Source: Nanobdellota archaeon (GTDB lineage Archaea; EX4484-52; LFW-46). Taken from it: a stretch of 64,000 nucleotides of DNA. Below, piece after piece: positions 30,772-43,719 of the stretch (positions within the stretch are counted from its first letter, which is position 1; each line of letters starts with the position of its first letter). The translations under genes were made by a program, and so were the position numbers. The notes under the pieces are model-generated. The model had not been told where the DNA came from and ran no database searches. It worked only from the letters and a program-made list of their open reading frames with translations. Location: positions 1,385 to 65,384 of the forward strand of contig JAHILE010000048.1 in the NCBI GenBank assembly GCA_018897155.1. The letters run 5' to 3'.

Positions 30772-31410
30772 TCATATGCCAAATTCCCTGTTCATAATCT
30801 TTATCTCGGCTTTTCTCAAATGCTCAAGAAGCGTTGCTTTGTTGAACCCTAACTTTTTTGCCAAATCCTGCGCAGAGATTTTTCTCGGCCAATTGTAATA
30901 GCCGCGCGCAACGGCATACTTCAGCACCATTTCCTGCTGGTCTGAAAGATTAAATCCATCAAATGTTGATTTTTTGACATATAGAAGTTCAAGCGCGCCG
31001 AGTTTTTTAATCGCTTCAATTGCATTTTTTATCGCGCCCTTTTCCGGCGCGGCAATTGTCCAGATTTCCCATCCGCCTTTCAGAAAGACTTTGCGCGATG
31101 CAAAGCAGTTGTTTTTCAGGATTGTGTGAACAACTGACTTGAATTTTATGCCTGATGTGTCCGTAAATACCTGCACAATCAGCTTCTTTTCAATTTCTTC
31201 AAGGACATTCCACTTCGCGATTATTTGGGATTTATCAAAATATTTCTTGATTGCATCTGCTTCGCCTTTTGCCAAAGATATTTCGGTAATATCCTGCACA
31301 AAATCCTTTGTAAGGCTAACTGTGATGTGCGTGAGAAATTCACTTTTAAATTTCACAAGACCGCCTGTCCAGCAGCCGTTGTGCTTCAATTTGAATCTGG
31401 CTTCGAACAT
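30772..31410 (-). CDS. HTH_10 (bacterio-opsin activator-type) DNA-binding protein
   Basis: C-terminal LSDQQEMVLKYAVARGYYNWPRKISAQDLAKKLGFNKATLLEHLRKAEIKIM. Confidence 0.7.
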   Translation of the reverse strand: MFEARFKLKHNGCWTGGLVKFKSEFLTHITVSLTKDFVQDITEISLAKGEADAIKKYFDKSQIIAKWNVLEEIEKKLIVQVFTDTSGIKFKSVVHTILKNNCFASRKVFLKGGWEIWTIAAPEKGAIKNAIEAIKKLGALELLYVKKSTFDGFNLSDQQEMVLKYAVARGYYNWPRKISAQDLAKKLGFNKATLLEHLRKAEIKIMNREFGI

Positions 31411-32964: not shown

Positions 32965-33411
32965 TTAGCGAATGTACTTAAGGGAATCAACCGGATACAA
33001 TTTACCGGAAAGATAATCGCGCACCACAGCCTTTATTGTTTTTCCGCGCAACTTTGAATCATCCATTGCAAGAATTTCTTTGGGGGTGAACCAGCGCGCG
33101 TCCATAATTTCGTTCTTCGGAATATTCAATTCGCCGGAAACTATTAATGCTTTGAAACGAAAATGGATCCTCATAAAATCGTTGTCTGTGTTCGGAGGGT
33201 TCTGATATATCCCCACAAGGCCATCAAGTTTAACATCAAATCCGGTCTCTTCCTTTACTTCGCGCCGGGCCCCGTCAGCAATATCTTCCGGAGGGTCAAA
33301 TCCGCCTGCAGGAAAATTCCATAGCCCACGCACCCGTTCTTTTGCTTCCTGCACAAGCAATATTTTTCCATCCTTCTGGACAAGCGCGCCGACAGTTATT
33401 ATTATTTCCAT
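32965..33411 (-). CDS. NUDIX hydrolase
   Basis: Nudix box GGFDPPEDIADGARREVKEETGF. Confidence 0.85.
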   Translation of the reverse strand: MEIIITVGALVQKDGKILLVQEAKERVRGLWNFPAGGFDPPEDIADGARREVKEETGFDVKLDGLVGIYQNPPNTDNDFMRIHFRFKALIVSGELNIPKNEIMDARWFTPKEILAMDDSKLRGKTIKAVVRDYLSGKLYPVDSLKYIR

Positions 33412-33418
33412 ACAATAC

Positions 33419-34294
33419 CTATACGATCGCCAAAATATAAATTCCCATTATAAGCAAAATCGCGCCGATTACGCGCGCAACCCCGTGTTTCTCTTTCAGC
33501 GCGAGCCATCCAATCAGAGCGGCAAAAAGCGGAAGCGTTCCTGATATCGGAAGAACTTTTGCAGCGTTCTGCATTGAAAGCGCGTAGAACTGGAAAGCGA
33601 CCCCAATAGGCGCGGCAATCGATGCCGCAAAAATCAGCCGGACGAGTTTTTTTTCGGAACGTATGGCATTGATTGTTTCTATAAGTTGTTTGCGCTTTGT
33701 TGCAAACGAAAAAAGAACAAAATAAATCGCAACAAAAACATACATGTAAAGCGATAGCATTAGAGGATGCATTGAGCCGACGCCAAGCTTTGCAACTATG
33801 CCGATAAGCGCAAGAAAAACAGCGGATATTGCTATAAGAACCATTCCGGCGGATTTTTTCGGGACTATTATTTTTCCATCTGTCCAGACAATGTATCCGC
33901 CCAAAACAATAACCACGACTCCAAGAAAATCAATCGCAAGAAATTTTTCTGACAAAAGAATTACTGCGAAAAAAAATGACAAACTCACGGAAATGGCATC
34001 GCGATAAGGAATCAGTTTTGACACTTCACCTGCTTTAAGCGCGTAAAAATATGTTATTGCAGCTAAAAAATAAAGTAGGGACAACGCAATCGCCAGATAA
34101 TTTATGCCGAATGCGGAGAACGGAATTGCAAGGGCAAGAACAAAAATATATGCGACAACCGCATTGATAGAAAACCTTATTGCAGAAAGCGCGAGAGCAT
34201 CGACTTTCGCGCTCTTCAGAATATGCCTGTCAAAAACAGCAACAAGCGCGTGCAAGAACGCAAAGGTCAAAGCGAAAATAAGCCATGTTTGCAT
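33419..34294 (-). CDS. EamA/DMT family transporter
   Basis: ~10 TM helices in a two-fold EamA-like arrangement. The ORF-track start at 34309 is TTG. The first ATG is at 34294 (MQTWLIF...). Confidence 0.7.
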   Translation of the reverse strand: MQTWLIFALTFAFLHALVAVFDRHILKSAKVDALALSAIRFSINAVVAYIFVLALAIPFSAFGINYLAIALSLLYFLAAITYFYALKAGEVSKLIPYRDAISVSLSFFFAVILLSEKFLAIDFLGVVVIVLGGYIVWTDGKIIVPKKSAGMVLIAISAVFLALIGIVAKLGVGSMHPLMLSLYMYVFVAIYFVLFSFATKRKQLIETINAIRSEKKLVRLIFAASIAAPIGVAFQFYALSMQNAAKVLPISGTLPLFAALIGWLALKEKHGVARVIGAILLIMGIYILAIV

Positions 34295-34352
34295 ACTATT
34301 CAATATCAATTAATAAACCATATATTTAAAGATTGAAACGAATATGTAATTA

Positions 34353-37313
34353 ATGATAAACGAGAGCGGTGTAAGGGAGCGCATTACATCTTTGCTGATG
34401 GATTACAATAAACTGCATAATAAAGAAGACGAAGCAGAAAAACTGGCAGAGGAATTCATAAGAGAGCTTTTTGAATCGTTGGGCTGGAGCTGGCGCGGCG
34501 GCGAGATAAAATTTCAAAAAAGGATAAAAAGTGCCCAGAAAACAACGCGCGTGGATTTTTCTTTCAAAAAAAGCGGCGAGTTGCGCCCTTCATTCTATCT
34601 TGATGCAAAACGCTTTTCAAACCGCCTTGAAGACCAAAAAGACGTACAACAGGTTCTTGATTACGGCAAAAACAGCGGGATACGATGGGTTATTTTGACC
34701 AATTTCATAAAATGGAGAGTATTTAATTCAGATTATTTCGATGAACCAGAACATGCGGAGCTATTTGAGTTTGATTTAAACGGCTGCCTGGGAAATCCGG
34801 AATATATGCGTTGGTTATTACTGTTCTCAAGAGACACTAGCGGAGTTGCGCTGAACGAGTACGCAAAAAGCCATAAAAAATGGAAAGAAAGCGCGGATAT
34901 AGAGGATTTGCTAACTGAACAATTGCTTGAAGCACGTCAAAAACTCGGCGTTGCAATCAGAGATCAAAATCTTCCGAAATTCGACACTGGGCAAAATATG
35001 GAAGAATCAATTGATTATTGCGTACAAACAATCCTTGACAGGATTATTTTTTGCAGAATGCTTGAGGATAACGGCTGCGACCCTGACAGAAAAATGCAGG
35101 ATGCTCTTGAGCGATGGGAAAACGGAGACAAACGAATTCAATTCTACAAGGATTTTCTTTGCCCATTTTTCGGAAAAATGCATGACAAGTACGACAGCAC
35201 CATATTTGACCAAGACAGAATAGACAGATTATCGATCAAAAATGAAGATTTTGTCCCTGTTTTGAAATCATTCTATAATCACCCGAAAACAAATTTAAGA
35301 TACCGATTTGATGTTATCAACACAGACGTTTTAGGGCATGCATACGAAAATTATCTATCTTACAAAGTAACTGCTAAGAAAAGGGGGCTTGAAGAGGAAC
35401 AGTACAAAAGAAAGCAAAGCGGAATATACTACACTCCGGAATTTCTTGTCGATTTTCTTGTGCGTGCGACGCTTGGAGAGCGCCTGAAAAAATGCAAAAA
35501 TCAGGCAGATGCGCTTAAAATCAGGGTTATTGACCCTGCTTGCGGCTCAGGCACATTTCTTGTCCGTGCGTTTGAGGAATTTAAAACATGGTTTACGGAA
35601 CATGAAAGAAAAAAGGAAAAATCCGATAACAGTTCGCAAACTCAGCTGGATGCGCATAGTGAAACAGGAACATCCGGCTTTCTTGACAAAGTTTTAGAGA
35701 ACTGCCTCTACGGCATCGATTTGGACTCGCGCGCCGTGAGGTTGGCGAGACTAAACTTATTTTTGCGCGCTGTCGATACGCCAAAACAGCTCCCGCAGCT
35801 TAAAATTATCGAAAGAAATTCGCTTGTATGGGATAATGAAATCCCGGGAGCGCTCAAAATAGAAAGAGATTTTCCGCTTGTCGCGGAAGCCGGAGGATTT
35901 GATATAGTTCTCGGCAATCCGCCGTGGGAAAAATGGAAGCCGGATTCACAGGAATTCTTTGAACAATTTTATCCGGGCTTCGGCAAACTGCCTGTTCAAG
36001 AGGCGAAGAAAAAAATAGAGGAGCTTACCAAAAAGCCGTACATAAAGAAAAAATGGATTGAAACGCAAGCGCATTACGAGATGTATTCCACGATTTTCCG
36101 GGAAAATTACGAATTCCAGAGCGCGGAAAGCAACGGAAAAAGCGTATCCGGAGATTTGGATTTATACAAGATATTCACCGAACGCGCGCATCAATTGCTT
36201 AAAGACGGCGGCATGTGCGGCTTTGTAGTTCCAAGCGGAATTTACACGGATTTGGGGGCAAAAGGATTAAGGACCATGCTTTTCGACCATTCAAAGATTA
36301 ATGCGCTTTACTCGTTTGAAAACCGAAAGTTCATATTCCGGGATATTGACCAGCGATACAAGTTTGTTCTTTTAGCTTATGAAAAAGGCGGAAAAACAAA
36401 ATCGTTCCCGTGCGCGTTTTTCCTGCACGACAAAGAAGATTTAGAGATGGCAGAAGAAAATCCAACAATACTCGACGTTGAATTTGTAAAGAGTTCATCG
36501 CCTACTGCATGGAGTATGCTGGAAATAAAAACGCCAAAAGATTATGGAATTGTCAAGAAATTGCTTAAAAATCCTTTACTTGGAGAAAAAATAGAAGGCG
36601 CGTGGAATGTGGGAATGCAAAGCGGCTTCCACATGACAAATGATAGTCATCTCTTCAAAACAGGACTTTATGGCGTGTCGATGCTTGAAGGAAAAAATAT
36701 CCACCAATTTACACATAATTTTAGTGAATCGCCAACGACACGATTTAAGATATTAGAAAAAGATATCGAAGCGAATCTGAAACCAGATAAAATATATCAT
36801 AAAAGCTATTGGATGGCGTATAGATTGATTGCGAGGTCGATGGATACAAGAACTTTCATATCTACGATAGTGCCGCCGGGTTATGTGTGCGGAAACTCAA
36901 TAGCCATAGTAAGAACGCCGGACTTAAAACAATTATGCTTCCTTTGCGGTGTGATGAACAGCTTTGTAGTCGATTACTTTATGAGACAGAAAGTCAGCGC
37001 GAATATCAATATGTTCTACTTCCTTGAAACACCGATTCCTCGCCTTTCTTCAGGCAAAGAATTTGACTCAATCGTGCGCAAAGTCGTTCAATTAGTGGCA
37101 GTAACGCCTGAATTTGACGCGCTGAAAAAAGAAGCCGGAGTTGAACACGCGCTGACAAATGAAAATGACAGGATGCATGCACGCGCGCAACTTGATGCAA
37201 TAGTGGCGAAACTCTATGGCATTACAAAAGAAGAATTGCAATTTATTCTCGCGCAGTTCCCGCTTGTGGATGAGAAGCAGAAGGAGATGGTGTTAGAGAA
37301 TATTAAAATATAA
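34353..37313 (+). CDS. Type IIG restriction-modification enzyme (PD-(D/E)xK nuclease fused to gamma-class N6-adenine methyltransferase, Eco57I/MmeI-like)
   Basis: N-terminal RVDFSF...FYLDAKRF...WVILTNFIKWRVFN (nuclease core). SGIYYTPEFLVDFLV, VIDPACGSGTFLVRAFE (motif I), YGIDLDSRAVRLARLNL and FDIVLGNPPWEKW (motif IV NPPW). Long C-terminal target-recognition region. Confidence 0.85.
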   Translation: MINESGVRERITSLLMDYNKLHNKEDEAEKLAEEFIRELFESLGWSWRGGEIKFQKRIKSAQKTTRVDFSFKKSGELRPSFYLDAKRFSNRLEDQKDVQQVLDYGKNSGIRWVILTNFIKWRVFNSDYFDEPEHAELFEFDLNGCLGNPEYMRWLLLFSRDTSGVALNEYAKSHKKWKESADIEDLLTEQLLEARQKLGVAIRDQNLPKFDTGQNMEESIDYCVQTILDRIIFCRMLEDNGCDPDRKMQDALERWENGDKRIQFYKDFLCPFFGKMHDKYDSTIFDQDRIDRLSIKNEDFVPVLKSFYNHPKTNLRYRFDVINTDVLGHAYENYLSYKVTAKKRGLEEEQYKRKQSGIYYTPEFLVDFLVRATLGERLKKCKNQADALKIRVIDPACGSGTFLVRAFEEFKTWFTEHERKKEKSDNSSQTQLDAHSETGTSGFLDKVLENCLYGIDLDSRAVRLARLNLFLRAVDTPKQLPQLKIIERNSLVWDNEIPGALKIERDFPLVAEAGGFDIVLGNPPWEKWKPDSQEFFEQFYPGFGKLPVQEAKKKIEELTKKPYIKKKWIETQAHYEMYSTIFRENYEFQSAESNGKSVSGDLDLYKIFTERAHQLLKDGGMCGFVVPSGIYTDLGAKGLRTMLFDHSKINALYSFENRKFIFRDIDQRYKFVLLAYEKGGKTKSFPCAFFLHDKEDLEMAEENPTILDVEFVKSSSPTAWSMLEIKTPKDYGIVKKLLKNPLLGEKIEGAWNVGMQSGFHMTNDSHLFKTGLYGVSMLEGKNIHQFTHNFSESPTTRFKILEKDIEANLKPDKIYHKSYWMAYRLIARSMDTRTFISTIVPPGYVCGNSIAIVRTPDLKQLCFLCGVMNSFVVDYFMRQKVSANINMFYFLETPIPRLSSGKEFDSIVRKVVQLVAVTPEFDALKKEAGVEHALTNENDRMHARAQLDAIVAKLYGITKEELQFILAQFPLVDEKQKEMVLENIKI

Positions 37314-37336
37314 ACTTTCGAGAAAACACTCTAATT

Positions 37337-38041
37337 ATGGAACACGAAACTAAGCCACTTAAAATATTTCTAAGTCATGCTGATAGAGATAAACTACTAG
37401 CATCAAAAATCAAGGCTGGGTTGGGAACTTATGGATTGAATGTTTTCTTAGCACACGAAGATATAAACCCAACTTCTGATTGGAGTGCTGTATTGATTGA
37501 TGAACTAGAAATGTGTGATATTTTTATCGCGTTATTGACTCCAAATTATAAAGAAGCCGATTATCCCGATCAAGAAGCGGGAATAGCATATTATATGACA
37601 ACAAAGTACAACAAGGTTATTCTATCTCTATCGACAGAAAGAACGCCTCATGGGTTCTTATGTAAGTTTCAGTCTTTGAAAATAGATGAATTTCTCCTAG
37701 ATATAGGAAAGGGCAAACCATTTCATTTTTGTAAGGCTGTATTAACTGCGCTTTACGAAAACAAACTATGTAAAGAAAGGATAAAAACAAGTCTTATAGA
37801 TACTTTCTGCAATAGTCATAGTTTTGAGCAGTCTAGTAGAACTATCTATATGGTGTATAGGTTATTACACCCAAAGTTACTAACTTCGGAAGAAGCGGAT
37901 AGATTAGTTGATGCAGCCCTAATTAATTGCCAAATATATGGCGCAGCTGGCGTTATAGAACGTCTAAAAACTGTTGTGGAAAAACACTATGCAGAACCAT
38001 CTAAAAAAATCAAACTCAATCAATTATCAAATTTAATGTAA
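37337..38041 (+). CDS. TIR-domain protein with uncharacterised helical C-terminal domain
   Basis: KIFLSHADRDKLLASKIKAGLGTYGLNVFLAHEDINPTSDWSAVLIDELEMCDIFIALLTPNYKEADYPDQEAGIAYY follows the prokaryotic TIR pattern (FxSH..D, W...I...L, conserved E). Starts 23 nt after the RM gene. Visibly more AT-rich than its neighbours. Confidence 0.7.
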   Translation: MEHETKPLKIFLSHADRDKLLASKIKAGLGTYGLNVFLAHEDINPTSDWSAVLIDELEMCDIFIALLTPNYKEADYPDQEAGIAYYMTTKYNKVILSLSTERTPHGFLCKFQSLKIDEFLLDIGKGKPFHFCKAVLTALYENKLCKERIKTSLIDTFCNSHSFEQSSRTIYMVYRLLHPKLLTSEEADRLVDAALINCQIYGAAGVIERLKTVVEKHYAEPSKKIKLNQLSNLM

Positions 38042-38044
38042 ACA

Positions 38045-38108
38045 TCAATACAAAAACATCTCATCCGCAACGCGCCCGTAAATCTCGCCGGCGCAGTTTC
38101 CCAAAAAC
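38045..38108 (-). repeat. Diverged duplicate of the gatD 3' end (last ~20 codons plus stop); direct repeat of 39109-39172
   Basis: 38047-38065 is identical to 39111-39129 (19/19). A ~14-nt diverged core follows. After that, about 27 of 29 positions are identical up to 38108/39172. The minus strand reads ..FLGNCAGEIYGRVADEMFLY-TGA, against the gatD end ..FLANCAGEISERIVDEMFLY-TAA. Confidence 0.85.
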
Positions 38109-38149
38109 TGCCCGGAACCTTTTTATACTTTGACCACCAGTAATCATGT

Positions 38150-38737
38150 ATGAACACTGATGTTCAAAAAATCATAAAGTATCCGCAAATACTGCGGCTT
38201 TTTCTGAAGTATCCTGAAAGGAGATTTACGCCGCTTGAGCTATCGAAAATTGCGCGCATTCCATACCCGACAGCACGCCGCTACGTTCTTCTTCTAGGAA
38301 AAGCTGGAATTGCGGATATCGAGCGCGTCGGGGCATATAATGTATGCCGGCTTAACGCCGGCTCGCCGCTGATTCCGGAAATAAAAAAAGTTTTGCAGTC
38401 CGAATTATCGCCGCATAAGCATGCCATCAGGGAATTCGCAGATAATCTGAAGCAAATAAAAGAAATAAAAAGGGCCATCCTTTTCGGAAGCGTCGCCGGA
38501 GGAAAAGAGACGCTTTCAAGCGATATAGACATAGCGGTTATTGCAGAAAAGAAATCGGGCGCGCTTGAAAAGAAAATAATCATGCTCTCCGGAAAAATAC
38601 TTGATAAATCGCGCATGAGGATTGTTCCAATACTGCTTACGGAAACCGAAGCAAGAGAGACCCCGCAATTCAGAGAGGAATTGAAAAAAGGAGTTGTAGT
38701 ATATGAGCGACATAAAAGAATCCGAATTTTGGCTTGA
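38150..38737 (+). CDS. Minimal nucleotidyltransferase (MNT) with N-terminal wHTH, antitoxin-like partner of HEPN
   Basis: wHTH FTPLELSKIARIPYPTARRYVLLLGKAGI. NTase motif AILFGSVAGGKETLSSDIDIAVI. Confidence 0.8.
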   Translation: MNTDVQKIIKYPQILRLFLKYPERRFTPLELSKIARIPYPTARRYVLLLGKAGIADIERVGAYNVCRLNAGSPLIPEIKKVLQSELSPHKHAIREFADNLKQIKEIKRAILFGSVAGGKETLSSDIDIAVIAEKKSGALEKKIIMLSGKILDKSRMRIVPILLTETEARETPQFREELKKGVVVYERHKRIRILA

Positions 38738-39089
38738 AGGCGCAAAAAAAGTAAGCAATTCCGGAGAATCAGAAAAGGAAAAATACACCGTAGCAGTTGC
38801 CATGACTATTCACTCAATAATAAAGGCCAATGATGCCCTTACGGTAAAATTTATGAATAAGCGCGCTGTTAGACACGATGAAGCGCCGGAGCTTTTCCGC
38901 CAGCTTGTGCAATTCAATAAAATCCCGGCAAAATTCTCGGATTTGCGGCTGTCGGTGCTTGCCCCGGCAATTCAAATAAAATCGAAAGCGGATTATAAAG
39001 GATTTGAAGCAAGCAAATCAGATACAGAACGATGGATTAGAAGCGCAGACAAATTCCTGAATGCTGTCAAGGAGTGTTTGAACGAATAA
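38703..39089 (+). CDS. HEPN domain protein (toxin-like partner of MNT)
   Basis: 128 aa, all-helical. NKRAVRHDEAPELF contains the R-x-x-x-H-type HEPN motif context. Overlaps the MNT gene by 35 nt. Confidence 0.7.
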   Translation: MSDIKESEFWLEGAKKVSNSGESEKEKYTVAVAMTIHSIIKANDALTVKFMNKRAVRHDEAPELFRQLVQFNKIPAKFSDLRLSVLAPAIQIKSKADYKGFEASKSDTERWIRSADKFLNAVKECLNE

Positions 39090-39108
39090 TCTTGTATGAT
39101 ATTATGAC

Positions 39109-40434
39109 TTAATACAAAAACATCTCATCTACAATCCTTTCGGAAATCTCGCCGGCGCAGTTTGCCAGAAACATTTCGCGCGCTTTCTTCATATCTTTCG
39201 TATGCCCGAGAACCCAGCCGAGCTTGACATAAGCGACTTCCGGCAGCATGTCCTTTGCAAAAATAACGCCTGCCTCGTCCATCTCGATTGCTGCGCGATA
39301 AACATGCGGATGCGTGCTGCCGTAAAGCGTCTGCGATGCACTCACAAGAACAACTCCGGATTTTATTGCATTCTTTACTGCTGTTTTCCACGATTTTTTC
39401 GCATCTATTGTGTCCCACGGAACATGGCCGAGCGCGGTTGTCTGCATAACAATTCCGCGAAAGCCTTTCTTGACGTAAAAATCAATTATTGACGGGTCTG
39501 AACCGGGATAAACTGCAACCTGAGCAACTTTTTCCTCGAACTTTGTATCTGCAACAACTTTAGATTCAGAGCGCATTCTGAAATTTCCGTCCATAACATC
39601 CAATTTTCCGTCAGGCCAGATTTTTCCGATTGGAAGCGAGTTTATCGGCCTGAATGCGTCGCGTCGGGATGTGTGCATTTTCCTGACTTTTGTGCCGCGG
39701 TTTATCAGGCAATAATCGTCATTTGTTGTTCCGTGCATCACGATTGCAACTTCGGCAATATCCGACAGGCAGTAATGCGCCGCGCATGCAAGATTCATTC
39801 CGCCGTCAAAGCTTGCGCGGTCAGGAGAACGCTGCGCTCCGACAACTGCAACGGGCTTGCTCAAATTTTGTAGCATAAATGAAAGCGCGGCTGAGGTATA
39901 ATGCAAAGTGTCTGTTCCGTGTGTGATAATTATTCCGCGCGCGTCAGTATTCAATTCTTTGGCAGCCGCTTTTGCGATTTCCTGCCACTGTTCCGGCGCC
40001 ATGTCTTCGGATGCAATCCGAAACGGGCTCTTGATGGATTTAATATTTACAAAATCGCGAAGCTCAGGAGTTGTGCGAAGTATTTCATCAGGCTCCATCA
40101 GCATGGAAACTCCGCCGGTTTTATAATCCACGCGCGATGAAATTGTTCCGCCGGTTGCAATGAGAGATATCGGCGGCTTTGATTTATCAAAAGACAAATT
40201 GCCTATCGGCGCAGTTCCGATTTTTGCTGAGGAATGCCCTAATTTTTCCAGTTTTGCGCCTTTTTCGAATTTAATGCCGACATTATATCCGCTGTCAAGC
40301 TTTAGAACAATACTATCAGTATCGCCGACATCAGAGCGTGGCATAAGAATGCCTTCGAAATCATCAATTTTAATCCTATCTCCAACCGCGATTTTTTTTG
40401 ACTTGAGAATCTGCTCGACATCTTTGGAATACAT
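39109..40434 (-). CDS. gatD: Glutamyl-tRNA(Gln) amidotransferase subunit D (asparaginase-like)
   Basis: N-terminal AVGDRIKIDDFEGILMPRS. Asparaginase motifs ATGGTISS and IIITHGTDTL. 441 aa. Confidence 0.93.
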   Translation of the reverse strand: MYSKDVEQILKSKKIAVGDRIKIDDFEGILMPRSDVGDTDSIVLKLDSGYNVGIKFEKGAKLEKLGHSSAKIGTAPIGNLSFDKSKPPISLIATGGTISSRVDYKTGGVSMLMEPDEILRTTPELRDFVNIKSIKSPFRIASEDMAPEQWQEIAKAAAKELNTDARGIIITHGTDTLHYTSAALSFMLQNLSKPVAVVGAQRSPDRASFDGGMNLACAAHYCLSDIAEVAIVMHGTTNDDYCLINRGTKVRKMHTSRRDAFRPINSLPIGKIWPDGKLDVMDGNFRMRSESKVVADTKFEEKVAQVAVYPGSDPSIIDFYVKKGFRGIVMQTTALGHVPWDTIDAKKSWKTAVKNAIKSGVVLVSASQTLYGSTHPHVYRAAIEMDEAGVIFAKDMLPEVAYVKLGWVLGHTKDMKKAREMFLANCAGEISERIVDEMFLY

Positions 40435-40456
40435 ATCAATTTATTGAAAAAGAGAA

Positions 40457-40467
40457 TTTATATAAAA
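40457..40467 (-). promoter_or_regulatory. Candidate TATA box for gatD
   Basis: The minus strand reads TTTTATATAAA, centred ~28 nt upstream of the ATG at 40434. Confidence 0.4.
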
Positions 40468-40782
40468 CAAAATATGTTGGAAATTGAAAAGTGAATAAAA
40501 AAATCCGCAAAAATTGAAAGAAAAAATCCAAAAAAAATCCGTTATACGCTTATTGTCGAATAATATTTTGCGCGCAAAAAAATCTATATATACTAGTTCA
40601 GCACATATACTTTTTGTGAGCAAAATGGCACAAACAACAACGCTTTGGAGTTCTATGAATTCGTTTGTGTCAGTGTCCACAAAATATTTTGTATCCTGCA
40701 TTAACCTATACCCAATAACTGCTTAATGCGGGATGATTCCTACAAAATAAAATTCTTGGATGACCGTACCTTTTTCATATTA

Positions 40783-40938
40783 TTAATTAGTATTCAATCT
40801 ATCCCAAAAGGCTTTGATGCGCTTCGAGTTGCCGCTTGACGCGCCGATATCAGGGTTCGGACCGAATGTTTCCGGAGCAATTCCGTTTTTTACCATTGCA
40901 GGATCCGAACCCTGACGAAGCCTAAAATTTGTTAGCAT
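40783..40938 (-). CDS. Candidate 51-aa ORF (MLTNFRLRQGSDPAMVKNGIAPETFGPNPDIGASSGNSKRIKAFWDRLNTN); could instead be a structured RNA
   Basis: ATG at 40938 and TAA at 40783-40785. TATA-like TTTATATA lies ~35-45 nt upstream on the minus strand. Contains a perfect 12-bp inverted repeat: TCAGGGTTCGGA (40850-40861) and TCCGAACCCTGA (40894-40905). No family recognised. Confidence 0.25.
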   Translation of the reverse strand: MLTNFRLRQGSDPAMVKNGIAPETFGPNPDIGASSGNSKRIKAFWDRLNTN

Positions 40939-41013
40939 TGTATTAAATTAAAGAGCGCAATAGCTCCAATTATGTATTTTGCAGTATATAAATGTTTTTA
41001 GTTGTCTAAATGT

Positions 41014-41442
41014 ATGGTTGAAAAACTTCCGAAAGCAGTTATAATCCTTCATAAATGCACATCCATATATCCGCGATTTTACGAGATTGTGGCGCAAAAC
41101 GAATATTTGGAAGAAGTCAAAACGTCTTTTGAAAGATATCTCAAACATTCAAACGTAGATACCGCAGAAAGCAAAACCTGTAGTGCCATTTCTAAAGATT
41201 CTGCAAAAAAATTAAAAGAATTGTTCAGAATTGATTGGATTCCTGTCGGTTCTCAGAGCCTTATTGGCCGCCAATACATACATCCATTTCTAAAGCTTGC
41301 CTTAGAAAAAGAGTATCCAGTATATTATCACGATGGCAAAGAACTTATCGAAACGGATTCGACAAAAGAAAATTTAGAATGGATGGTTTACGATTCAGAT
41401 AGAAAAGAAAAACTCCGAATGCCTCACGTCCACAACCTTTAA
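41014..41442 (+). CDS. Hypothetical protein
   Basis: The ORF-track start at 41002 is TTG. The first ATG is at 41014 (MVEKLPKAVIILHK...), ~25 nt after GTATATAAATG. No recognisable family. Confidence 0.5.
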   Translation: MVEKLPKAVIILHKCTSIYPRFYEIVAQNEYLEEVKTSFERYLKHSNVDTAESKTCSAISKDSAKKLKELFRIDWIPVGSQSLIGRQYIHPFLKLALEKEYPVYYHDGKELIETDSTKENLEWMVYDSDRKEKLRMPHVHNL

Positions 41443-41523
41443 AAACCTTCCTAAAGAACATAAGGTATTTAGCATTCATGTTCTTGAACAGAATAGAATG
41501 AAAAGAAACTGTAGGGAATTTAT

Positions 41524-43719
41524 ATGGCACGAGCAAGTTTTATCGAAGACCTGAAAACGATTATCAAAGACGCAAAACAGATTAGAAATATCGCTATTTG
41601 CGCGCATATTGACCATGGAAAAACAACGCTTTCCGACAACTTACTGTCAGGAGCAGGCTTGATCTCAAGCGACCTGGCAGGAAAGCAGTGCTTCATGGAC
41701 TTTGACAAACAAGAACAAGAGAGAGGCATAACAATTTATTCTGCAAACGTATCAATGATTCATAGTGTTGGTAACAAAGACTTTGCCATCAATCTTATAG
41801 ATACGCCCGGCCACGTAGATTTTGGCGGAGATGTGACAAGAGCCATGAGGGCGGTTGACGGCTGCGTTGTTGTGGTTTGCGCAGTAGAAGGCGCAATGCC
41901 GCAGACAGAAACAGTTCTAAGGCAGGCATTAAAGGAGCAGGTAAAACCGATTCTATTCATAAACAAAGTCGACAGATTGATAAAAGAACTCAAATTATCA
42001 CCTGAGGAAGTTCAACAGAGGCTTGCAAAGCATATTGCTGCAGTGAACACACTTATCAAAAAATACGCACCTCTTGAACGCCAGGCAGATTGGATGGTTG
42101 ATGTAAACTCAGGAAAGGTTGTATTTGGCTCAGCATATCATAACTGGGCGATTTCAATTCCTTTCATGAAGAAATCAGGAATAACATTTAAAGATATTTT
42201 TGACGCAGTAAACGGAGGAACTGAAAAAGAGTTCGCAAAAAGAGCGAAAGCATATGAAGTGCTTCTTGATTCAGTCATTATGCACCTTCCAAGTCCTTTC
42301 GAAGCTCAGAGATACAGAATCAAGAAAATCTGGACTGGTGAGCCCGACAGCCCTGAAGGAAAATCAATGTCCGAATGTAATCCAAACGGACCTCTTGTTG
42401 GCGTTATAACTAATGTCAGCGTAGATATGCACGCAGGTAGCATCAGCACAGTAAGGCTTTTCTCAGGGACTATAAAAGAAGGCCAGGCAGTCTATCTTAT
42501 AAGCCAGGAATCAGATGAACGGGTACAACAGGTTGGAGTCTATGCAGGACCGCGAAGAGTGCAGCTCGGCGAGATTTCATGCGGAAATATCATTGCAATA
42601 TCAGGGCTTTCAAAGGCATTTTCAGGAGAAACAATCTGCTCTGCAGAAATAAAGACTGCGCCATTTGAGAGCATAAAGCACATATTCGAGCCGGTTGTGA
42701 CAAAATCCATTGAAGTAAAAGATGTCAAGAATCTGCCAAAAATGATTGAGCTTCTAAGACAGCGCTCAAGAGAAGATCCAACAATAGCGATAAAAATCTC
42801 TGAAACCACTGGAGAAACACTCGTATCTGGTCTTGGAGAACTTCACCTAGATGCAAAAATCGAAAGATTTTTGCGCGACAGAGGCATAGACATCATTGTT
42901 TCAAAGCCGATAATTATCTATAAGGAAAGTATTTTCAACAGTTCGAACGAATACGAAGGCAAGTCCCCCAACAAACACAACAAATTCTTTGTAACGGTGA
43001 CTCCAATGCCTGAGAGCGTACTCTCTGCAATGAACGCAGGGCTTGTAGAAGAAGGAAAAGTCCGAAAGCAGGATGTAAAATCCACTGTCGAAGAGCTAGT
43101 TACTGCTGGAATGAATCGTGACGAAGCAAAAAAAGTAATTGACCTTTACAAGGGAAATATACTTTTGAACGACACAAAAGGCATAGTGCAGCTCAGCGAA
43201 GTTATGGAGCTTGTAGTGCAGTCTTTCCATGAAATAAGCGACCAGGGCCCTCTTGCAGGAGAGCCGGTAACTGGAATGCTGATACATCTCACAGATGCCA
43301 AGCTTCATGAAGATGCAATACATCGAGGCCCGGCACAGGTGCTTCCGGCAGTCAAGGGCGCGATAAAGAACGCGATGGTTGATGCCAAAGCAGGCCTTCT
43401 TGAACCGAAGCAAATACTTAGGGTCGATACGCCAATGGAGCGAATCGGCGACGTAATGAATGAAATACAAAACAGGCGAGGCCAGATTCTTGAAATGACT
43501 GAGGACTCAGGAATGTCAGTCATCAAATGCAAGCTTCCGGTAGCCGATATGTTTGGTTTTGAAGGTGCGCTTAAATCTGCAACAGGAGGACGAGGATTCC
43601 AGTCTCTCATAGACATCATCTACGAGAAGCTTCCGAACGACATGCAGGATAGAACAATTCTTGCAATAAGGAAGAGAAAAGGCATGAAAGAAGAGTTGCC
43701 GAGCATAGATGTTGAATAG
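41524..43719 (+). CDS. fusA: Translation elongation factor 2 (aEF-2)
   Basis: IRNIAICAHIDHGKTTLSDNLL (G1), DTPGHVDF (G3), NKVDR (G4) and the diphthamide-loop HEDAIHRGPAQ. 731 aa. Confidence 0.97.
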   Translation: MARASFIEDLKTIIKDAKQIRNIAICAHIDHGKTTLSDNLLSGAGLISSDLAGKQCFMDFDKQEQERGITIYSANVSMIHSVGNKDFAINLIDTPGHVDFGGDVTRAMRAVDGCVVVVCAVEGAMPQTETVLRQALKEQVKPILFINKVDRLIKELKLSPEEVQQRLAKHIAAVNTLIKKYAPLERQADWMVDVNSGKVVFGSAYHNWAISIPFMKKSGITFKDIFDAVNGGTEKEFAKRAKAYEVLLDSVIMHLPSPFEAQRYRIKKIWTGEPDSPEGKSMSECNPNGPLVGVITNVSVDMHAGSISTVRLFSGTIKEGQAVYLISQESDERVQQVGVYAGPRRVQLGEISCGNIIAISGLSKAFSGETICSAEIKTAPFESIKHIFEPVVTKSIEVKDVKNLPKMIELLRQRSREDPTIAIKISETTGETLVSGLGELHLDAKIERFLRDRGIDIIVSKPIIIYKESIFNSSNEYEGKSPNKHNKFFVTVTPMPESVLSAMNAGLVEEGKVRKQDVKSTVEELVTAGMNRDEAKKVIDLYKGNILLNDTKGIVQLSEVMELVVQSFHEISDQGPLAGEPVTGMLIHLTDAKLHEDAIHRGPAQVLPAVKGAIKNAMVDAKAGLLEPKQILRVDTPMERIGDVMNEIQNRRGQILEMTEDSGMSVIKCKLPVADMFGFEGALKSATGGRGFQSLIDIIYEKLPNDMQDRTILAIRKRKGMKEELPSIDVE

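Follow-up and report, generated by a model that had tools for sequence, protein, structure and literature searches.

Displacement of C-terminal (3') ends at Rhs, contact-dependent inhibition (CDI) and type VI secretion system (T6SS) effector loci, which leaves the old 3' ends as orphans, has been proposed to occur via homology-facilitated illegitimate recombination (Kirchberger et al., 2017, PMC5361080; Jackson et al., 2009, as cited in PMC5361080). Defence-island hotspots, such as those of the E. coli pan-genome, lie between conserved core genes (PMC10121019), and PDC-M05, which pairs a nucleotidyltransferase with a HEPN protein, has been noted as archaea-enriched (PMC12988326). Here we describe a locus on contig JAHILE010000048.1 of a Nanobdellota archaeon (GCA_018897155.1), of which a 64-kb stretch was analysed (referred to as the window; coordinates are window positions unless a relative is named). 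In this window the 3' end of gatD, which encodes Glu-tRNA(Gln) amidotransferase subunit D, is present twice, and the two copies bracket a minimal nucleotidyltransferase (MNT) gene and the gene for its HEPN-like partner. The arrangement was probably produced by displacement of the gatD tip, in which homologous recombination in gatD was coupled to an illegitimate joint and the two tips were later homogenised in patches.

The duplicated gatD 3' tip

gatD itself is intact (39109..40434, minus strand; 441 amino acids; Pfam GatD_N, Asparaginase and Asparaginase_C), the GatD homologues of relatives being 82-88% identical, and its last 21 codons with the TAA stop form the live tip (39109..39172, minus strand). 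The orphaned, displaced tip (38045..38108, minus strand) consists of 62 nucleotides (nt) of coding homology plus a TGA stop and is a decaying pseudogene fragment. A repeat search of the window returned the two as a single family of direct repeats (38047-38108 and 39111-39172; 62 nt, spacing 1064 nt, 84% identity). The copies are identical at 52/62 positions, in the order 19/19, then a 14-nt core with eight mismatches, then 27/29; the clustering of 8 of the 10 mismatches inside 14 nt is non-random (P ~8e-4) and improbable under uniform decay. A first-pass annotation of this DNA, made from the sequence alone, had described the repeat in the same terms, and computation bears it out in length, spacing and block structure. 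The minus-strand translations also read as they were written there, ending in ...FLGNCAGEIYGRVADEMFLY for the orphan (stop TGA at 38045-38047) and in ...FLANCAGEISERIVDEMFLY for the live tip (stop TAA at 39109-39111).

With up to three mismatches allowed, the window contains two occurrences, and no more, of the 20-mer AAATCTCGCCGGCGCAGTTT and likewise of the 19-mer AATACAAAAACATCTCATC, where shuffles expect 0.00 and 0.04 occurrences respectively; the repeat is therefore not a product of chance, and there is no third copy of the gatD tip in the whole 64 kb, including the region beyond the restriction-modification (RM) gene of the locus, where the first-pass annotation had proposed looking for one. 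Gapped local alignments found no homology above shuffles past the 62 nt plus stop on either side (beyond 38108 and 39172). The region is 100% identical in at least four independent assemblies, so that an assembly artefact is unlikely and there is no within-population variation to exploit. A tandem duplication in situ or a chance similarity, with no foreign DNA involved, is scarcely credible: nothing beyond the existence of the repeat speaks for it, chance is excluded by the shuffle counts, the intervening DNA consists of two genes whose homologues form modules elsewhere in the genomes of relatives, and the synonymous sites at which the copies differ follow an allele-type pattern.

The only family-supported open reading frames (ORFs) between the copies are those of the MNT (38150-38737) and the HEPN-like protein (38703-39089), which agrees with the first-pass annotation in finding these two genes alone there. 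It had also reported that no integrase is present, and this is correct within +/-10 kb: Pfam annotation of all genes revealed no integrase or transposase family either in the cassette or across that distance, and the nearest tRNA genes are ~13 kb away.

Homology to gatD stops at 38108, homology to the fen1-linked MNT modules of relatives (described below) begins at about 38116-38121, and the segment after 38108 (38109..38149, plus strand) holds the illegitimate junction and the MNT promoter, with a TATA-like TTTATA at 38122-38127. The inner joint of the orphan is abrupt and non-homologous, and the same joint is present in a related contig, L026 (described below). Within this segment TGCCCGG completes a hairpin with the tip (stem region 38088-38115); the hairpin, CCGGCGCAGTTT-cccaa-AAACTGCCCGG, spans the inner end of the orphan, its stem being finished by 7 nt just beyond the gatD homology, and 4/200 shuffles fold equally well. 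Snap-back synthesis at the illegitimate joint could have left it as a scar, or it could terminate transcription of the neighbouring TIR gene; because it is weakened by a mismatch in L026, no function is claimed for it. The idea that the GC-rich core of the orphan had been shaped to form a hairpin with the NCA codons was dropped, as the minimum-free-energy fold pairs 38088-38115 across the junction.

Unoccupied and occupied sites in relatives

An unoccupied site is present in L034 (GCA_017973895.1), which was reached via GatD cluster member P0140. Its gene order is gatD (85% nt identity), one live tail, a 400-nt AT-rich spacer, orf333 and the RM gene (76% amino acid identity), with no trace of an MNT or HEPN-like gene and no second tail. 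The single tail reads ATG TTT CTG GCA AAC TGC GCC GGC GAG ATT TCA GAG CGC ATT GTG GAT GAG ATG TTT TTG TAT TAA|TGTT. The GatD of L034 (217-1632) also has a 28-codon insertion near its N-terminal domain by comparison with the window protein (BLAST gap, L034 438-515).

A sister occupied site is carried by L026 (ENA k141_1775745), a contig of 2.5 kb that covers only the last 430 nt of gatD. Here the order is the RM 3' end, orf144 (a membrane ORF in the place of the TIR gene), an orphan tip, MNT, the HEPN-like gene and the convergent 3' end of gatD; over window 38047-39538 the contig shows 85.7% nt identity, and the junction sequence is shared. Given this shared scar, the event predates ~14% nucleotide divergence and is thus old. 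The L026 orphan reads ...ISGRIVD... and has a frame-breaking deletion; it is intermediate in a series that runs from the live ISERIVD through ISGRIVD to the IYGRVAD of the window orphan. In L026 the similarity between the two tip copies is only ~78%; they differ by an indel and have no long perfect block in common, indicating that the perfect blocks of the window are secondary. L034, unoccupied, and L026, with the same tip, junction and cassette, together support the proposal of the first-pass annotation that the repeat is an insertion footprint in which the incoming DNA supplied a replacement 3' end.

The tips are mosaics of gatD alleles. The window orphan and the live tail of L034 have the CGC Arg codon and the post-stop TGTT in common, and in BLAST the L034 tail matches the orphan as far as window 38041 (88% over 68 nt); the orphan core is of the type found in L034 and in a further relative, L022 (CGC Arg codon). 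The live tip of the window is resident-type except for a 13-nt core: it differs from L034 at five sites only, all of them synonymous and all within that core (P ~0.003). The live tail of L026 shows 14/66 scattered differences from L034 and is closest to the allele of another relative, L024 (57/64). Four sites separate orphan from live tip in both the window and L026, and all four are in the core. The window orphan has four private changes, which fall at first or second codon positions and at sites invariant in all live tails; in the L026 orphan the private changes are spread along its length. From these patterns we infer that the resident tip was displaced and is now the orphan (A), and that the live tip (B) stems from another gatD allele and arrived together with the cassette; the comparison covers only 66 informative nt and gives moderate support for a donor-allele live tip. 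The first-pass annotation had likewise suggested two different gatD alleles, in line with an orphan that keeps the L034/L022-type core and live tails that are donor-type in the core (window) or throughout (L026). In the window lineage the flanks of both tips appear to have been homogenised later to the resident type, which would account for a diverged core flanked by perfect blocks of 19 and 20 nt. The Thr-to-Met ATG codon found in both window tips was considered as proof of window-specific gene conversion and dropped; the L034 live tail also has ATG.

Displacement of the 3' tip probably accounts for this set of sites. In the ancestor, gatD would have been followed by a convergent variable gene and a type IIG RM gene, as L034 still has. 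The incoming DNA, from a related archaeon, would have comprised the last part of its own gatD allele and, next and convergent to it, a HEPN-MNT pair; one side of this DNA would have paired homologously inside gatD, and the other would have formed a non-homologous joint at a point 62 nt before the resident stop codon. The outcome would be a live gatD with an imported tip, a cassette with its own TATA-type promoter, an orphaned resident tip and the old neighbours, by a route that would need no dedicated recombinase. The orphan would then have decayed, by the shared Glu-to-Gly change, the L026 frameshift and the four private window changes; in the window lineage the tips would also have exchanged sequence by gene conversion or further recombination, so that they now differ only in a core of 13-14 nt and are identical, and of the resident type, on either side of it. 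The match to 3'-end displacement lies in the orphaned old tip, the abrupt non-homologous inner joint, the donor-type live tip and the lack of a recombinase. Other features of such displacement are present as well, namely an orphan that lies downstream of the module in the orientation of the live gene, an intact gatD, and in L034 an unoccupied site whose single tail is orthologous to the orphan and its downstream flank.

Several points weigh against this account. L034 could represent a secondary loss via tip-tip recombination and not the ancestral state, since the distances among L034, L026 and the window are all much the same (85-87% nt); ancestral or lost, L034 marks out the cassette as a unit of insertion or deletion with the tips as its boundaries. 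The upstream homologous crossover in gatD was not located, sliding identity being too noisy. No donor genome was found in which a B-type gatD is followed by HEPN-MNT and which has no orphan tip. Finally, the mosaic of the window live tail needs at least one extra event, presumably gene conversion.

Direct repeats that bracket exactly one cassette, tips that are both chimeric for resident-type and donor-type sites, and a compact cassette with its own promoter would also suit a Campbell-type integration, in which a circle of ~1.06 kb (gatD tip, MNT and HEPN) entered by a single crossover within the 62-nt tip and so duplicated it. No recombinase gene would be needed for this either, and such a circle could form by tip-tip recombination in an occupied genome and then spread to relatives. 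We consider it unlikely, however: the homology is only 62 nt long, no circular junction was seen, nor any further lineage in which the site had been occupied independently, MNT/HEPN homologues at other loci have no gatD tip, and the origin of the first tip-bearing circle is unexplained unless an illegitimate event is invoked.

The first-pass annotation had suggested that the cassette may be a decayed element or one mobilised in trans. In a site-specific integration of such an element its attP would mimic the gatD 3' end, and the two copies would be attL and attR. A direct repeat of a gene 3' end around foreign DNA is the classic footprint of such integration, and the perfect 19- and 20-nt blocks might pass for an att core. 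Beyond this, nothing points to a site-specific element and the idea is improbable. No integrase lies in the cassette or within +/-10 kb; the L026 copies lack a long perfect block, and the window blocks match the L034 resident allele; in five relatives the other insertions at this spot are free of any tip repeat; and homologues of the cassette at fen1 and other loci have no repeats, none having been found in viral contigs. The perfect blocks are a result of later homogenisation, not an att core.

The cassette and the gatD-EamA interval

The MNT (38150..38737, plus strand; 195 amino acids) combines an N-terminal winged helix-turn-helix (wHTH)-like region with a minimal nucleotidyltransferase (Pfam Polbeta, 1e-11; NTP_transf_2, 2.3e-8). 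It matches PADLOC PDC-M05A at 7.7e-16, scores 37.6 bits against NCBIfam MntA, below the cut-off of 60, and carries the GS-x(9-13)-DxD nucleotidyltransferase motif, read as FGSVAGGKETLSSDIDIAV. Its partner of 128 amino acids (38703..39089, plus strand), the gene for which overlaps that of the MNT by 35 nt, gives a match to Pfam HEPN (PF05168) that is full-length yet sub-threshold (E 0.019). All six of its homologues match PF05168 (6/6, best 1.1e-5), and hhalign relates it to a confident HEPN neighbour at E 2.4e-5. R54 and H58 are invariant among the homologues and form R-x3-H, one residue short of the canonical Rx4-6H; neither a PDB sequence search with a profile nor PADLOC gave a match for this protein. 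On these sequence comparisons the partner is HEPN-like and not a certified HEPN protein, and the cargo as a whole resembles a type VII toxin-antitoxin (TA) pair and corresponds to the PADLOC candidate defence system PDC-M05.

A palindrome, TGAACActgaTGTTCA (38151-38166), overlaps the MNT start codon, with a related half-repeat 20 nt upstream (38131-38146), and both are almost invariant across the five aligned MNT loci. It is a plausible candidate operator for the wHTH-like region of the MNT, which would imply autoregulation.

The closest homologue of the MNT, at 86% amino acid identity, is that of L026. MNT/HEPN-like pairs with 67% amino acid identity lie directly after fen1 in L027, which is from the same genome as L024, and in L030; the nucleotide similarity of these pairs to the window runs from 38116/38120 to 39082/39085, and this span, the promoter plus the two genes, is exactly the interval between the tips. 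More distant pairs either follow a peptidase gene or form a tandem with a second MNT-HEPN pair. No repeats flank the homologues at the fen1 loci or at the other loci examined, and no relatives of the MNT were found in viral contigs. Judged from these alignments, the cargo moves as a unit. In the more distant relative L033 (3982-6000) there are two tandem MNT-HEPN pairs, one with a confident PF05168 HEPN and the other of the type seen in the window, which shows that such cassettes accumulate side by side.

The cassette occupies one end of an islet between gatD and the gene for an EamA-family transporter (34313..39107, strand not applicable) that is absent from L002, where gatD is followed directly by EamA across a 28-nt spacer (the empty site). 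After gatD there is orf215 in L008, orf66 in L022, a major facilitator superfamily (MFS) transporter in L024, orf232 with an HNH gene and a type IIG RM gene in L025 (the latter 74% identical to that of the window and in the same orientation), and orf333 with RM in L034; L026 has RM, orf144, the orphan tip and the MNT/HEPN-like pair. Six relatives (L002, L008, L022, L024, L025 and L034) thus have six different contents downstream of gatD, and from these differences the whole of 34313-39107 (4.8 kb) is accessory DNA. None of L002, L008, L022, L024 and L025 has an extra gatD tip. The gatD-EamA spot is a variable recombination hotspot, which corrects the first-pass annotation in that the whole interval varies and not the cassette alone. 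The EamA gene (33419..34309, minus strand; Pfam EamA) is the conserved far flank of this hotspot and adjoins the gatD-side insertions in L002, L008, L022 and L024; a NUDIX hydrolase gene (32965-33411, minus strand; Pfam NUDIX) follows.

The type IIG RM enzyme (34353..37313, plus strand; 986 amino acids; Pfam Eco57I, N6_Mtase and MmeI_Mtase; PADLOC REase_MTase_IIG, 1.9e-58) has orthologues at the same position and in the same orientation in L025 (74% amino acid identity), L026 (81%) and L034 (76%), and is the older resident of the islet. Were the order reversed, MNT-HEPN would have been resident by gatD and the RM/TIR block would have arrived later, carrying 62 nt of a donor gatD tip. Both blocks do abut a gatD stop codon convergently, and the EamA-NUDIX segment beside RM is discordant in its relatedness (77-83% to L024/L002 versus 57-65% to L022/L008). 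This order is nonetheless very doubtful: L034 and L025 have gatD...RM with no MNT-HEPN, the orphan matches the L034 live tail in the core codon and in the post-stop bases, and RM is found in four lineages as against two for MNT-HEPN at the gatD site.

Relatedness was compared between 32965-34309 (EamA, NUDIX) and both 39109-43719 (gatD, EF-2) and 30772-31410 (HTH_10). EF-2, GatD and HTH_10 are closest to L022/L008 (96/94%, 88/88% and 88/89% amino acid identity respectively); EamA and NUDIX (32965-34309) are closest to L024/L002, and L022/L008 are distant. Such discordance suggests that recombination has also exchanged the islet flank.

The slot from the RM stop to the gatD stop, be it that of the orphan or of the live tip, is occupied by a different low-GC gene in three lineages (window 37314-38044; L026:586-1031; L034:1633-3090). 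These are, respectively, the TIR gene (34% GC), the membrane ORF of 144 amino acids (32%) and an uncharacterised ORF of 333 amino acids (37%, with a 30%-GC spacer); the flanks of the slot have 42-48% GC. The RM-tip slot is a second, finer hotspot beside the tip. In the window the TIR-domain gene (37337..38041, plus strand; Pfam TIR_2, 1.7e-13) lies between the RM stop and the orphan tip and has no close homologues, the best being 33% identical. The first-pass annotation had predicted an empty site with gatD next to the TIR gene; none was found, and the gene in the tip-adjacent slot differs from lineage to lineage. The label 'Nanoarchaeota archaeon' is attached to one member of the TIR cluster, and distant GatD relatives are labelled DPANN, Aenigmarchaeota or Micrarchaeota; the host is an uncultured DPANN-type archaeon.

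Immediately downstream of gatD, L008 (9377-10024) and L025 (10314-11593) encode members of an uncharacterised family of 215-232 amino acids with an N-terminal FSTKHPIADVET motif, which in L025 is followed by an HNH endonuclease with ZorE-like matches (1.4e-9). This family may be another small defence candidate at the gatD hotspot.

It is conceivable, if rather a long shot, that the gatD tip serves as a reusable homology 'landing pad', such that tip-bearing cassettes loop out by tip-tip recombination and re-enter relatives by single crossover with no recombinase. The orphan would then stay recombinogenic and seed swaps in the adjacent slot (TIR, orf144 and orf333 in the three lineages), gene conversion would feed sequence back into an essential gene, and genome-reduced archaea would have a means of integrase-free cassette exchange anchored on a housekeeping gene.

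Comparison with known systems

The scar at gatD is of an ordinary, known kind of recombination, and no new kind of system is revealed by it. It is of value as a well-resolved natural case, with the occupied, sister-occupied and unoccupied states all represented, of a genome-reduced archaeon gaining a TA- or defence-like cassette without mobile-element machinery. The cassette was gained beside an essential gene, and the later evolution of the scar combines decay with exchange of sequence between it and the live gene. The gatD-EamA interval is also flagged as a small variable hotspot that could be mined for new archaeal defence candidates.

As a hotspot, it resembles known defence islands in having conserved flanks (gatD on one side, EamA/NUDIX on the other), variable and often defence-related content, and an empty site (L002). 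It differs from the E. coli defence hotspots in being very small (0-4.8 kb) and in belonging to a reduced archaeal genome; some of its occupants (the MFS transporter and the uncharacterised ORFs) are not recognisably defence genes.

By its sequence, the cargo is like MntA/HepT type VII TA pairs and PDC-M05 in its two overlapping genes, its minimal nucleotidyltransferase with GS...DxD, its small all-helical HEPN-like partner and its scattered genomic locations. Unlike MntA, the window MNT falls below the equivalog cut-off (37.6 versus 60) and has the extra N-terminal wHTH-like region; the partner has R-x3-H in place of Rx4-6H, its HEPN matches are sub-threshold, and PADLOC does not recognise it.

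With integrative elements that target the 3' ends of tRNA or protein genes and are bounded by attL and attR, the locus shares a direct repeat of a gene 3' end around foreign DNA and a gene that is left intact. It departs from them in having no integrase, diverged repeats, a sister lineage with no perfect blocks, a cargo of only 1 kb, and other insertions at the site that are free of repeats. The Rhs, CDI and T6SS displacements differ from it in their target, which here is a housekeeping translation gene and not a polymorphic toxin; in addition, the displacement at gatD involved only 21 codons and left the protein as it was, the orphan stands singly and not in an array, the cargo is an MNT/HEPN-like pair in place of an immunity gene, and the host is a DPANN-type archaeon. 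As in those systems, the conserved upstream gene receives a new 3' end from the incoming module; its old 3' end, moved downstream, persists there as an orphan in the same orientation; and the event has one homologous side and one abrupt non-homologous joint, with no recombinase.

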